From an uncultured Roseateles sp. (GTDB lineage Bacteria; Pseudomonadota; Gammaproteobacteria; Burkholderiales; Burkholderiaceae_C): DNA of 64,000 nt. The translations under genes were made by a program, and so were the position numbers. The stretch covers positions 6,473,974 through 6,537,973 of the forward strand of contig OY729424.1 in the NCBI GenBank assembly GCA_963422335.1, written 5' to 3'. The notes under the pieces are model-generated. The model did no database searches. It was not told the DNA's origin and saw only the letters and a program-made list of their open reading frames with translations. Below are positions 8,951 through 11,715 of the stretch, piece by piece; the first letter of the stretch is position 1; the number at the start of each line of letters is the position of its first letter.

Positions 8951-10864
8951 TCAGGGCATTGGGGTGTGGTCCTTGCAGGGCGGCTTGGCAAAAGCGTCGA
9001 TGACGCCAGCGATGCCGGTCGGGTCGATTGCCGTGATGATGATCATGTCGAGGTCCTTGATCAGGTCGGCGGTGTAGAACAGCATCTGCCGCGCCGCCCA
9101 TTCCCGGGCAATGTGTTTGTAGTCGGCCGAATCGCGGGGGTACCTGGCGGCGATCTTGGCCTCGATGTCGGCGCTCGAAATGGACGCCAGATTCTTCTCT
9201 GACAGCAGCAGGAAGTTGATGATGTCGTTCGACAGTACCGCCAGGGCCTGTGCCAGCTCATCGGCCGTCTTGGCTGCCTCGTAGGCCTCCTTGGCGGTCA
9301 TCACCCCGACCTTGGCTTCGCCGATCGCGCCCGCCGTGGCGAAGGAGCCGATCATCATCGCCGAGCTGACCACCATATTGCCGATGGTGTTGACGCATTG
9401 GTTGGCGTTGCTGGCGCAGGCCGCGGCACCGCAATCGGCGATGCCCGCGGCGCAGCGCTGGTTGCAGTTGGTGACATTGCACTGGTAGCCGTCGCGCGGT
9501 TTGACGTAGCACAGGCCGGCCTGCATCACGCGATTGGAATTGCAGGAATTTGCCCCGCTGCCCACGCCATTTCCATACGACGCTTTGGACAGCCAGCAAA
9601 CGCCGCCCACGTTGGTGTAGCCGTCGCGGCAACTGTCCGGGGCAGACAAAACACAAACATCTGCAATCTTTTGCGTGCAATGCCAGCCGGGCGTGTAGGA
9701 CAGCGACTGGTCGCTCCAGCACACCGGGCCGACGGGATGGTAGCCGCTGCGGCAGTTGGTGTAGCACAGGGCACCGTCCTTGTACTGGCCGTCGGCACAA
9801 CCGGGCAGGATGCCGGCGCCACGGTCGTAGGCAGCGGTCTTGTAGCAGAACGGCGTGCTGCTGATCGAGGTCTCGGCCTGGATCCAGTTGACAATCGTCG
9901 TGACCTGGCCGGCACTCAAGGTCTGGCCCGGCACATAGGTAGTGGGTTTGTCGGGCACGCCCTGTGGCCAGTTGCTGGCCACGACGCTGCTGGTGCTCCA
10001 GTACTGGGCCACATTGCCGGCATCGCAGGTCTCGAGGTCAACGCCGGTCTTGGTCTGGCCCAGGCACAGACCGGTGCTGAGCGACACGATGCTCGAGTTG
10101 CTGCCACGCTTCCACTTTTGATTGGCTGCAGGCGGCACACCCGTATCGCCGCAACTTCCCAGACCGACCGCCGCGCCAGCACCTCCCGAAGGCGTCAGGC
10201 AAAAGCCGTTCAACACGATGGCGCCCTGGTTGGTGAAGCGAAAGTACTCGCTCTTTGCCGTCCCGGCACATACCGACGCGGTCAGCTTGCTGGCCGACAG
10301 CGGCGAGGTGAAGTCGGTCTGCTGCAAACAGCTGCGCGTGCTGCTCTTGACCTGGGTCTTGCTGGGGTCAGTCAGGTCGACGGGCAAGGGGTTGGCCAAG
10401 GTCCACTTCTGGTTGGCTGCGGTGGCCGAGCACAGAGCAAGTTCAGCGCTCAGCACGCCCGGACTCCCGCTGCTGAGGCCTGGTTTCACATAGCCCACCA
10501 ACTGCCATGACAGGCACATGGCCGACAGCGCCCGGCTTTGGGCGAGTTGAAGTCGGTCGCCACCGGGTCGGCTCCAGTAGGTGCTGGTGTTGCCAGTGGA
10601 AAGCGCGCCGCTGAAACCGGCCGTCTTGCTCGCAAACAGATTGCCTTGCAAATAGCGCTTGCCGTCGCTGCCGGCCAGATAGACCGTACCGTCAGCACCG
10701 AAGACGAAGCGCTGCTCAGCCCCGCCGCAGGTGTTGAGCAGACCGCTGCCGTCCAGGCATTTGCCGTTGCTGCCAACGACGTTGTAGGAGGTATCAGCGG
10801 CTTGGGCCGACGCCAAGGCGCTTGCTGCCAACAGCGTGATCAAGAAGCGAGAAAACCAATTCAT
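8951..10864 (-). CDS. Secreted protein: two ricin-B-type beta-trefoil lectin domains + Cys-rich region + hydrophobic/helical C-terminal domain (function unknown)
   Basis: Track ORF 8951..10918; I use ATG 10864 (MNWFSRFLITLLAASALASAQA, a signal peptide). Two trefoils each carry three QxW-like subrepeats: EQRFVF/TYWSR/NQKWTL and EYFRF/NQKWKR/AQYWST. These are followed by 17 Cys in about 153 residues with recurring C..C..GY...G..CW patterns. Next come MMIGSFATAGAIG and a helical tail of about 130 aa. Confidence 0.8.
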   Translation of the reverse strand: MNWFSRFLITLLAASALASAQAADTSYNVVGSNGKCLDGSGLLNTCGGAEQRFVFGADGTVYLAGSDGKRYLQGNLFASKTAGFSGALSTGNTSTYWSRPGGDRLQLAQSRALSAMCLSWQLVGYVKPGLSSGSPGVLSAELALCSATAANQKWTLANPLPVDLTDPSKTQVKSSTRSCLQQTDFTSPLSASKLTASVCAGTAKSEYFRFTNQGAIVLNGFCLTPSGGAGAAVGLGSCGDTGVPPAANQKWKRGSNSSIVSLSTGLCLGQTKTGVDLETCDAGNVAQYWSTSSVVASNWPQGVPDKPTTYVPGQTLSAGQVTTIVNWIQAETSISSTPFCYKTAAYDRGAGILPGCADGQYKDGALCYTNCRSGYHPVGPVCWSDQSLSYTPGWHCTQKIADVCVLSAPDSCRDGYTNVGGVCWLSKASYGNGVGSGANSCNSNRVMQAGLCYVKPRDGYQCNVTNCNQRCAAGIADCGAAACASNANQCVNTIGNMVVSSAMMIGSFATAGAIGEAKVGVMTAKEAYEAAKTADELAQALAVLSNDIINFLLLSEKNLASISSADIEAKIAARYPRDSADYKHIAREWAARQMLFYTADLIKDLDMIIITAIDPTGIAGVIDAFAKPPCKDHTPMP

Positions 10865-10914
10865 GGCGATGACTCCGGTGAATGCAATTCGGTGAGGCCG
10901 CGTGCGGGCGCCGA

Positions 10915-11715
10915 TCAAGCGGGGCGCGACAAGCGGCGGTTTTCGGCCACAGGTTTGAGCCCTGCCTTTACCGCCTTCGCTGCCTGCGCCACCTTGGCGC
11001 GCCGAATCGCATCAATCGCCGCAGCGAGTTGCTCGGTGCCGACGGCACCGCGAAACATCACATCGCCAACGACGATGGCGGGCGTACCCTGAATCCCCAG
11101 GCGCTCGGACAATGCGCGCACCTCACCGAGTTGGCGGTTCACTGCGACGACGTCAACGGGTTTGAGTCCGAATTGGCGGCTGATGGCTTGCAGGCTGGCG
11201 GTTTCCAGGGAGTCCGCACCGAGCAGTGCCTTGTGCAGTTGCTGCGCCGCGACGCCCTGGCCTGCAGACAAGGCCAGCTGTGCCGCCGCAATCGACTCCG
11301 GGCCCAAGATAGGCAGGTGCTTGACCAGCACGCGCAGCTGGCTGTCACGCTGGATCAACGCCTCGATGCTGGGAGAGAGTTTTTTGCAGAAGCCGCAGTG
11401 GTAGTCAATGAACTCGACCAGCGTGACATCACCGGCCGGGTTGCCCAATACGGTCGCATCGGATTCGTCGTTGAGGGCTTTGGACGCAGCGGCGAGGCTC
11501 TTGCGTTCCTGCCGGGCATTGCCCGTTTGCTCGCGGCGCTGCAATTCGTCCAGCGCTTCGCGCACCAGCTCGGGCCGGCTTTTGAGCAGCTTGATCACGA
11601 CCTGCTCGATGGCCTGGGGCGAAGCGCCAGTCTGCGCGATCGCCGCGCCGCCCGGCAGCGCCAGGCACAGCAACGCCAGCCAGCGGGCGGCAGGGCTCAT
11701 AAAAAGTGAAGGCAT
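10915..11715 (-). CDS. Periplasmic DsbA-family thiol:disulfide oxidoreductase/isomerase (ScsC/Com1-like)
   Basis: 266 aa with a signal peptide (MPSLFMSPAARWLALLCLALPGGAAIAQ) and a helical N-terminal oligomerisation-like segment. Thioredoxin-fold active site: FIDYHCGFCKKL. An AGGAG Shine-Dalgarno precedes the start. Confidence 0.85.
   Translation of the reverse strand: MPSLFMSPAARWLALLCLALPGGAAIAQTGASPQAIEQVVIKLLKSRPELVREALDELQRREQTGNARQERKSLAAASKALNDESDATVLGNPAGDVTLVEFIDYHCGFCKKLSPSIEALIQRDSQLRVLVKHLPILGPESIAAAQLALSAGQGVAAQQLHKALLGADSLETASLQAISRQFGLKPVDVVAVNRQLGEVRALSERLGIQGTPAIVVGDVMFRGAVGTEQLAAAIDAIRRAKVAQAAKAVKAGLKPVAENRRLSRPA

Follow-up and report, generated by a model that had tools for sequence, protein, structure and literature searches.

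Dedicated pairings of a thiol-disulfide enzyme with one exported protein are exemplified by DsbL-AssT in Escherichia coli and SrgA-PefA in Salmonella, in which a substrate-dedicated DsbA paralogue is encoded beside its client. The enzymes of both pairs are monomeric oxidases, and their clients hold one or few disulfides. A different fusion is found in CEL-III, a haemolytic lectin in which two trefoils are combined with a pore-forming domain. In the VM proteins of Leptospira, ricin-B is joined to a toxin domain (PMC9002632). Among the ScsC proteins, CcScsC of Caulobacter (structure 7rgv) is a trimeric disulfide isomerase with an oligomerisation helix at residues 3-36, and the role of the characterised members is in copper tolerance (PMC8900818). 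The present analysis concerns two adjacent genes at positions 8951-11715 of a 64,000-nucleotide stretch from an uncultured Roseateles sp. (contig OY729424.1). The whole stretch is called the window below, and all coordinates refer to it. Gene 1 encodes a predicted ScsC-type enzyme, and gene 2 a lectin whose cysteine-rich C-terminal half, about 340 residues long (residues ~295-637), is referred to as the C-module.

The locus shares with DsbL-AssT and SrgA-PefA the adjoining of a thiol-disulfide enzyme gene and an exported, disulfide-containing client, but it has an ScsC-type enzyme and a client for which about 14 disulfides are predicted. With CEL-III and the VM proteins, gene 2 shares the plan of a secreted protein that joins ricin-B trefoil(s), for glycan targeting, to a distinct effector domain. 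In gene 2 this putative effector half is cysteine-rich and helical, and neither its sequence nor its fold resembles CEL-III domain 3, the VM proteins or any solved structure. With trimeric ScsC (CcScsC 7rgv, PmScsC 4xvw) and the Com1-like 3gyk, gene 1 has in common the DsbA/thioredoxin fold, the CxxC motif, the cis-proline loop and a predicted N-terminal helical extension. It differs from ScsC in that it carries CGFC, is not part of an scsABCD copper-resistance locus, and is linked through synteny with a single cysteine-rich client. A Dsb paralogue beside its client and ricin trefoils fused to an effector are already known kinds of arrangement. What is new here is a widespread, cross-kingdom, unannotated module, a putative effector that has no structural relative, together with its deep linkage to an ScsC-type enzyme. 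We tentatively read the pair as a two-gene cassette made up of a dedicated isomerase and a glycan-targeted, probably membrane-active effector, a reading to which we give a probability of about 45%.

Layout of the gene pair

A first-pass annotation, made from the sequence alone, had placed two co-directional genes 50 nucleotides apart between a PEP-CTERM gene and nasT. This layout is confirmed, and both genes lie on the minus strand:

10915-11715, minus strand: gene 1, ScsC/Com1-type DsbA-fold thiol-disulfide oxidoreductase, predicted to be exported; 266 residues; Pfam DSBA and Thioredoxin_4
10865-10914, minus strand: spacer of 50 nucleotides between gene 1 and gene 2, with a GGAG ribosome-binding site 8 nucleotides before the gene 2 ATG
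8951-10864, minus strand: gene 2, lectin/cysteine-rich protein; 637 residues counted from the ATG
10799-10864, minus strand: gene 2 Sec signal peptide, residues 1-22; cleavage after AQA predicted by inspection
10394-10798, minus strand: gene 2 domain 1, diverged beta-trefoil-like duplicate, residues ~23-157; 4 cysteines
9983-10393, minus strand: gene 2 domain 2, ricin-B-type beta-trefoil, residues ~158-294; 6 cysteines
9395-9982, minus strand: first part of the C-module, residues ~295-490; linker, conserved helix WIQAETSI…TPFCYK, cysteine-rich beta-hairpin stack
8954-9394, minus strand: second part of the C-module, residues ~491-637; hydrophobic Gly/Ala-rich helix (residues ~496-520), then amphipathic helices

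A Shine-Dalgarno motif (GGAG/AGGAG) precedes both ATGs by 5-8 nucleotides, and the open frame of gene 2 extends upstream as far as TTG 10918. In a scan, nothing resembling a terminator or a promoter stood out between the two genes.

The ScsC-type enzyme

Gene 1 matches the Pfam families DSBA (1.9e-13) and Thioredoxin_4 (1.2e-11), the latter being a match that the first-pass annotation had proposed to look for. The CGFC active site corresponds to residues 107-110, and inspection of the N-terminus reveals a Sec-like signal (…LALPGGAAIA followed by Q) without a lipobox. The description of gene 1 as a signal-peptide DsbA-fold protein with a CGFC site therefore stands. Its closest solved structures are 7rgv (CcScsC, 1e-29), 3gyk (a 27-kDa outer-membrane, Com1-like protein), 4xvw (PmScsC) and 4gxz (StScsC), with E-values from 1e-29 to 2.5e-24 against the CcScsC, PmScsC and Com1-like structures. 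A helical N-terminal arm of the ScsC/Com1 type had also been claimed, and here the outcome is mixed: the helix is conserved, and the alignment to 7rgv enters it, starting at chain residue 13 inside the oligomerisation helix, but the Pfam match to ScsC_N (E 0.085) stays under the cut-off. In six partner genes from other loci, the N-terminal helix IEQxVxKLLKxRPELVRDAL, the CG[FY]C motif and the GTP loop are all kept, and this cis-proline loop (GTP) is invariant among the partner genes. No scsA-, scsB- or scsD-like gene lies beside gene 1 in the window or at the related loci. From these alignments, gene 1 is predicted to encode an ScsC/Com1-like periplasmic enzyme with an oligomerisation-type N-helix.

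Conservation of the gene pair

Loci with a gene 2 relative were gathered by exact-protein look-ups plus genome and metagenome scans, giving 28 informative loci with the window counted. The scans used close-relative patterns and returned only loci of the clade with at least 44% identity, so that distant contexts come from the exact-protein look-ups only. An ScsC-like gene stands directly upstream of the gene 2 relative and in the same direction at 20 of these 28 loci:

Window; R. aquae APW11; both copies in R. albus hw1; both copies in Roseateles PN1
Both copies in an uncultured Paucibacter metagenome-assembled genome (MAG; bin.9); a Burkholderiaceae MAG (MAG_28)
L003/4, L005, L006, L007 and L009, with a non-ricin N-terminus in L005 and L006
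L028, L029, L030 and L033; Methylomonas AM2-LC (L024); L027

The most telling of them is L027. Its C-module is 26% identical to that of the window and is preceded by an unrelated, non-ricin N-terminus, and its partner gene, 28 nucleotides upstream, is 30% identical to gene 1 and has Pfam ScsC_N listed. The paralogous copies in R. albus hw1, Roseateles PN1 and Paucibacter bin.9 each retain their own foldase gene. Co-conservation of the two genes, on which the first-pass annotation had staked its proposal, is thus found in both Beta- and Gammaproteobacteria, down to a locus of 26% identity and in co-duplicated copies. The flanks vary from genome to genome: APW11 has mnmE/yidC/dnaA, R. albus has fatty-acid hydroxylases, L003 has an integrase, and the window, L014, L029 and L030 have nasT. 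The pair therefore travels as a unit. No immunity-like gene is conserved alongside the pair, which would suit a target other than the producer itself, for instance a eukaryote or an alga. Searches of the literature for the gene pair or the module returned nothing specific.

Regulatory genes recur near the cassette: an OmpR-type regulator with a kinase in L002, L006 and L024, a GerE-type regulator with a Y_Y_Y-domain sensor kinase in L026, and a hybrid kinase in the window. These two-component genes may reflect regulated expression or chance. In a betaproteobacterial MAG from Kiruna (L023), the gene joining DUF5648 to the C-module has a duplicated secreted-protein pair on both sides (1211-3001 and 5944-7701 of that locus), consisting of an Ala-rich helical protein of ~220 residues and a protein of ~355 residues with a helical N-terminus and a Gly-rich C-terminus.

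The lectin half of gene 2

Gene 2 opens with the Sec-type signal MNWFSRFLITLLAASALASAQA followed by A, recognised by inspection. The pattern is kept in the family consensus of its homologues, which bears out the Sec signal first assigned to it. Domain 2 (residues 171-289) matches Ricin_B_lectin (PF00652) with 5.4e-12 and 46.4 bits against a cut-off of 29, and its profile matches among Protein Data Bank (PDB) entries are ricin-type lectin B chains and xylanase CBM13 domains. Domain 1 (residues 23-157) has no Pfam match even at E<=10, but alignment of its profile to that of domain 2 (hhalign) gives a probability of 96% and an E-value of 2.6e-9. A QxW motif is clear in its last subrepeat only (NQKW). 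Of the two ricin-B-type trefoils proposed at first, the second is therefore confirmed by Pfam, while the first is recognisable only through its likeness to the second. Some homologues have both PF14200 and PF00652. Gene 2 likely has a tandem trefoil with a diverged first copy, and both trefoils are putative glycan binders. The lectin half holds 10 of the 28 cysteines of the protein.

The C-module and its family

The cysteine-rich stack of the C-module has 17 cysteines within residues 340-490, arranged in repeated GLCYxxCxxGYxGxGPVCW-like units with invariant cysteine columns. The sequence MMIGSFATAGAIG occupies residues 503-515, within the hydrophobic helix region, and the motif DPTGI..VIDAFAKPPC, with the single final cysteine at 630, closes the module. 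Both the counts and the anatomy agree with the initial description of a 17-cysteine stretch, a glycine-zipper-like segment and a helical tail with one last cysteine. The protein ends in …AFAKPPCKDHTPMP, without a terminal membrane helix, and Pfam and NCBIfam detect no PEP-CTERM sorting signal on it; only the upstream neighbour has one.

The C-terminal half (residues 295-637) has no match in Pfam (E up to 10) or NCBIfam, and a profile search of PDB sequences with gene 2 matched only ricin-type lectins, through the N-terminal columns. A first AlphaFold2 (AF2) model of the C-module, built from 29 sequences, had a predicted local distance difference test (pLDDT) of 59.5, which is too poor, and its Foldseek result is noise. 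The second model, from an alignment of 48 sequences, reached a pLDDT of 80.3 and a predicted template modelling score of 0.53. In its numbering, which starts at residue 295, a helix at 24-42 is followed by a stack of short beta-hairpins at 45-190 with pLDDT >90, and by helices at 193-331. Confidence is low exactly at the hydrophobic helix (205-217) and at 313-321, and the last 20 residues are confidently placed (pLDDT 80-86). When this model was compared with the PDB by Foldseek, the best E-value was 0.4, and the top matches (Pfs25 EGF repeats, syntaxin) are noise. The claim that no described family can be assigned to this part of the protein is thus upheld by Pfam, NCBIfam, PDB sequences and Foldseek against the PDB.

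The module was then followed through its sequence profile (alignment A2), which was searched against 1.84 billion cluster representatives, with clusters defined at 50% identity. It matches 2,450 proteins at E<=1e-3, 1,228 at <=1e-10 and 234 at <=1e-30. Many of the matches span the whole C-module once, and others hold only multiples of the cysteine-rich unit. The gene 2 protein is the family seed, and the retrieved proteins include 76 full-length modules. The family signature consists of a WIQxET…TPFCYK…YDRGxG head, GLCY/GPVCW hairpins, a DMVvSP…ATxGaaG hydrophobic helix and a DPTG…AFxKPxC end. The hydrophobic helix (profile positions 203-222) is conserved family-wide and is the sole hydrophobic stretch of the profile, with a mean Kyte-Doolittle value of up to 1.6 over 15 residues. 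Members come from Betaproteobacteria (Roseateles/Paucibacter), Methylomonas and a Deltaproteobacteria MAG, and eukaryote-like members carry EF-hands or ciliate-type ephrin-receptor-like repeats. None of the members was found to have an informative name.

Foldseek against predicted viral structures (BFVD) matched the cysteine-rich part to uncharacterised giant-virus proteins, with E-values from 2.7e-9 to 9e-4 and 19-26% identity over 168-223 columns. The cysteine-rich beta-hairpin repeat fold is seen in A0A8F8KL79 (Clandestinovirus 'hemagglutinin'), A0A5J6VJY1 (Megaviridae), A0A7D3QWC1 (Fadolivirus), E5EQ87, A0A6M6DDH0 and A0A142BZK2; the likeness is limited to the cysteine-rich part, and the viral names are automatic annotations. 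Two cysteine-rich hairpin-repeat units occur in a eukaryotic tyrosinase-domain protein (P0032). The C-module family is therefore one of bacteria, protists and giant viruses, with no solved structure. The module had been announced as novel, and it is indeed unannotated, with no Pfam or NCBIfam entry, but it is also widespread: the gene 2 protein is one member among ~2,450 clusters.

What accompanies the module elsewhere was examined with Pfam in 62 relatives. The partner domains are Ricin_B (9), RicinB_lectin_2 (4), Tectonin (3) and Laminin_G_3 (2), with one each of DM9, F5/8 type C, DUF5648, Fascin/FRG1 and Toxin_R_bind_N. They sit N- or C-terminal to the C-module, and nearly all are lectin folds. 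What stays constant is the C-module, and what is exchanged is the glycan-binding part. This gives independent support to the original idea of a lectin joined to an effector of no described family, since different lectin folds make up nearly all the partners of a constant module.

A predicted disulfide latch

The cysteine-rich part has an odd number of cysteines (15, 17, 19, 21, 23 or 25) in 71 of the 76 full modules, and the tail has exactly one in 72 of the 76; these counts take in close relatives that are not all independent, and they hold across clusters below 50% identity. The tail cysteine lies within the best-conserved tail motif, DPTG…AFxKPxC. The simplest reading of an odd count in the core and a single cysteine in the tail is a tail-to-core disulfide, and the cysteine parity makes a fairly strong case that such a bond would tie the end of the tail to the cysteine-rich domain. 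The C-module would then probably have 9 disulfides, and the whole gene 2 protein 14. A tail-to-core disulfide would place the tail in an oxidising compartment, which speaks against a role of the hydrophobic helix as a membrane anchor in the resting state. The C-terminal cysteine was also considered as a MYXO-CTERM-like sorting signal, and this was rejected because neither a membrane helix nor a basic tail follows it.

Proposed mechanism and its alternatives

Domain anatomy, family size, lectin swapping, cysteine parity and gene pairing are observed. In the proposed model, the gene 1 product would most likely be a dedicated disulfide isomerase or oxidase that serves the gene 2 product. It would help form or shuffle the disulfides of this client, because trimeric ScsC proteins are isomerases (PMC8900818). 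The case for a client-foldase relationship between the two products is fairly strong. The gene 2 product would be exported by the Sec pathway, with its tandem trefoil head joined to a C-module made up of a disulfide-knotted hairpin stack and a helical tail that starts with the hydrophobic Gly/Ala helix. Since the C-module is constant and the lectin is swapped, the lectin would be the targeting part and the C-module the effector. The lectin would bind a glycan-bearing surface, after which the latched helical tail would be released or rearranged, allowing the hydrophobic helix to engage the membrane. The case for a membrane or toxin activity of the C-module is weak. A bolder form of the model, which we regard as doubtful, would make the C-module the first examined bacterial member of a cross-kingdom group of lectin-guided effectors, whose latched tail, once released, would insert into target membranes as a new class of alpha-helical pore-formers or membrane-disruptors. 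The bacterial members would have co-evolved with an ScsC-type isomerase that builds the 9-disulfide latch domain.

Several points count against the cassette as we read it. The ScsC-like gene is missing upstream at 8 of the 28 loci. Five of these (L020-22, L031-32) form one Paucibacter sublineage in which the PEP-CTERM gene abuts the lectin gene; the distant members L023 and L025 have no Dsb-like neighbour, and L026 has a different thioredoxin-fold gene immediately downstream, which we count in favour of the pairing. The foldase gene is thus not indispensable, and the pairing is strong, ancient, and can be lost. No ScsB/DsbD-like reductant partner was seen in the 64-kb window, which bears on the choice between isomerase and oxidase; such a partner may lie elsewhere in the genome. 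No sequence or fold similarity to a known toxin, pore-former or enzyme was found in Pfam, in PDB sequences or by Foldseek. In the second AF2 model, the helical tail has moderate confidence and the hydrophobic helix a pLDDT <50. The shared ancestry within the parity counts also weighs here, and so does the route of the gene 2 product, whose export beyond the periplasm we infer. Finally, the constant PEP-CTERM neighbour in Roseateles fits a role at the cell surface or in the matrix as well as it fits a toxin. As an observation in its own right, the unpaired Paucibacter sublineage is ~65-70% identical to gene 2, its ScsC-like gene has been lost or was never present, and it forms a natural minus-foldase group.

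The main rival, which we consider rather unlikely, takes gene 2 for a surface or matrix lectin. Kept at the cell surface or in the exopolysaccharide matrix, it would cross-link glycans through its trefoils and, together with the beta-helical PEP-CTERM protein, take part in flocculation, biofilm formation or attachment, with the cysteine-rich stack as a rigid stalk and the helical tail as an oligomerisation or anchoring element. The neighbour in question is as follows:

11773-14907, minus strand: PEP-CTERM surface protein gene, upstream neighbour of the pair; ~1044 residues from the ATG at 14907; T5SS/PEP-CTERM-associated repeats (Pfam, NCBIfam)

In-frame tblastn places a homologue of this gene immediately upstream at all Roseateles/Paucibacter loci whose flank is long enough, those lacking the foldase gene included, and at none outside the genus. 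In the related genus Aquincola, floc formation is reported to need a PEP-CTERM gene (PMC9850573). Cysteine-rich hairpin stacks are typical as stalks in extracellular proteins, and in P0033, a metagenome protein of 496 residues in ENA, N-terminal repeats resembling the T5SS/PEP-CTERM-type repeats of this neighbour are fused to a single trefoil and a C-module. This last protein is encoded on a 3.4-kb contig and could be a real Rosetta-stone fusion or a truncated or chimeric gene call. However, this link to a PEP-CTERM gene is seen in one genus only: Methylomonas, L003-L009, L027 and L033 have the module and the foldase without it, and the PEP-CTERM gene is a genus-level addition outside the core pair. 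A matrix role would also leave unexplained the conserved hydrophobic helix and the latched tail of protist and bacterial members with unrelated lectins, and gene 2 itself lacks a sorting signal.

Both remaining explanations are ranked less likely than the cassette. In the first, which seems very unlikely, gene 2 would encode a type I membrane protein anchored in the inner membrane by its hydrophobic helix, which would act as a stop-transfer segment. The lectin and cysteine-rich parts would lie in the periplasm and the tail of ~120 residues in the cytoplasm, where it might serve as a sensor or scaffold. With its mean Kyte-Doolittle value of about 1.5, the segment VVSSAMMIGSFATAGAIG is a borderline membrane helix, and two-component genes are often nearby (the hybrid kinase of the window; the OmpR-type pairs of L002, L006 and L024). 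However, cysteine parity pairs the tail cysteine with the cysteine-rich domain and so puts the tail in an oxidising compartment, the equivalent segment of eukaryotic members contains Lys and Asp, and a lectin facing the periplasm would have no obvious ligand. The last explanation, that gene 1 is a general envelope- or copper-stress ScsC merely adjoining gene 2 without any specific relationship, can draw on the copper tolerance of characterised ScsC (PMC8900818) and on the lineages that retain gene 2 without a foldase gene, but it has little in its favour when the adjacency persists from 89% down to 26% client identity across differing flanks, the pair is co-duplicated in three genomes, and no scsA, scsB or scsD stands beside gene 1 in the window.

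Genomic surroundings

The first-pass annotation had the pair wedged into a nitrate island. The nitrate genes are in fact on one side only: nasT, whose product has REC and ANTAR domains (Pfam/NCBIfam), lies downstream of gene 2 and is followed on this low-coordinate side by nrtABC and an MFS transporter, while the other side holds a hybrid kinase, a second PEP-CTERM gene and an IcmF-like mutase. The pair therefore sits at the edge of the nitrate cluster. An overlap of the 3' end of gene 2 with the possible nasT starts holds for the most upstream TTG (8991) only; the ATG candidates at 8937 and 8931 lie past the gene 2 stop (8951-8953). The second PEP-CTERM protein gene (690 residues) is at 18227-20299 on the minus strand, ~3 kb beyond the first, and the divergent hybrid histidine kinase gene at 15211-17055 on the plus strand lies between the two. 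Nothing supports the long plus-strand open reading frames over the region, which are shadow frames of the kind usual in GC-rich DNA.

The contrast in base composition first reported from rough hand counts (roughly 52-67% GC against ~70%) was overstated. Gene 2 has 63.1% GC, with 0.81 at third codon positions (GC3), and gene 1 has 64.9% and 0.77; the neighbour nrtA is at 63.0%, the GC3 of neighbouring genes is 0.85-0.91, and the window, measured over 2-kb intervals, averages 67.3% with a standard deviation of 2.2. The composition was rejected as evidence of acquisition, since the dips in GC and GC3 are small and due in part to amino-acid content (0.54 GC at first codon positions). Mobility is hinted at only by the variable flanks and by the integrase in one relative.

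Matches to sigma-70 promoters and terminators did not exceed shuffled expectation. Because the PEP-CTERM gene of Aquincola is RpoN-dependent, sigma-54 promoters were also searched; 107 matches were obtained where 114 were expected, and none of them lies upstream of the gene block. A sigma-54-type -24/-12 element with one mismatch (TGGCACGCATCCTGC) is present at 8163-8177 on the minus strand, in the nasT-nrtA intergenic region (8010-8286) and ~150 nucleotides upstream of the nrtA-like gene; it is a single lead at a chance level of motif counts across the window. The 277-nucleotide leader in this intergenic region could contain an antitermination target of NasT (ANTAR). Farther away, Rfam places two riboswitches above their gathering scores, a manganese (yybP-ykoY) riboswitch at 35691-35847 on the plus strand (78 bits, E 1.3e-18) and a glycine riboswitch at 59359-59474 on the plus strand (45 bits, E 6e-06).

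Significance

Through this locus, the ScsC-type trimeric isomerases, so far known mainly via copper tolerance, would gain a concrete, genetically linked client. A natural ScsC substrate would allow the periplasmic assembly of complex, non-consecutive disulfide patterns to be studied. The consistent fusion of the C-module to interchangeable lectins is a hallmark of targeting-plus-effector design. If gene 2 instead encodes a matrix lectin, it would connect PEP-CTERM surface proteins with glycan cross-linking in floc formation. If the effector is membrane-active, it would represent a new toxin or defence fold, and could bear on how Roseateles and Paucibacter interact with algae, cyanobacteria or grazers in freshwater.

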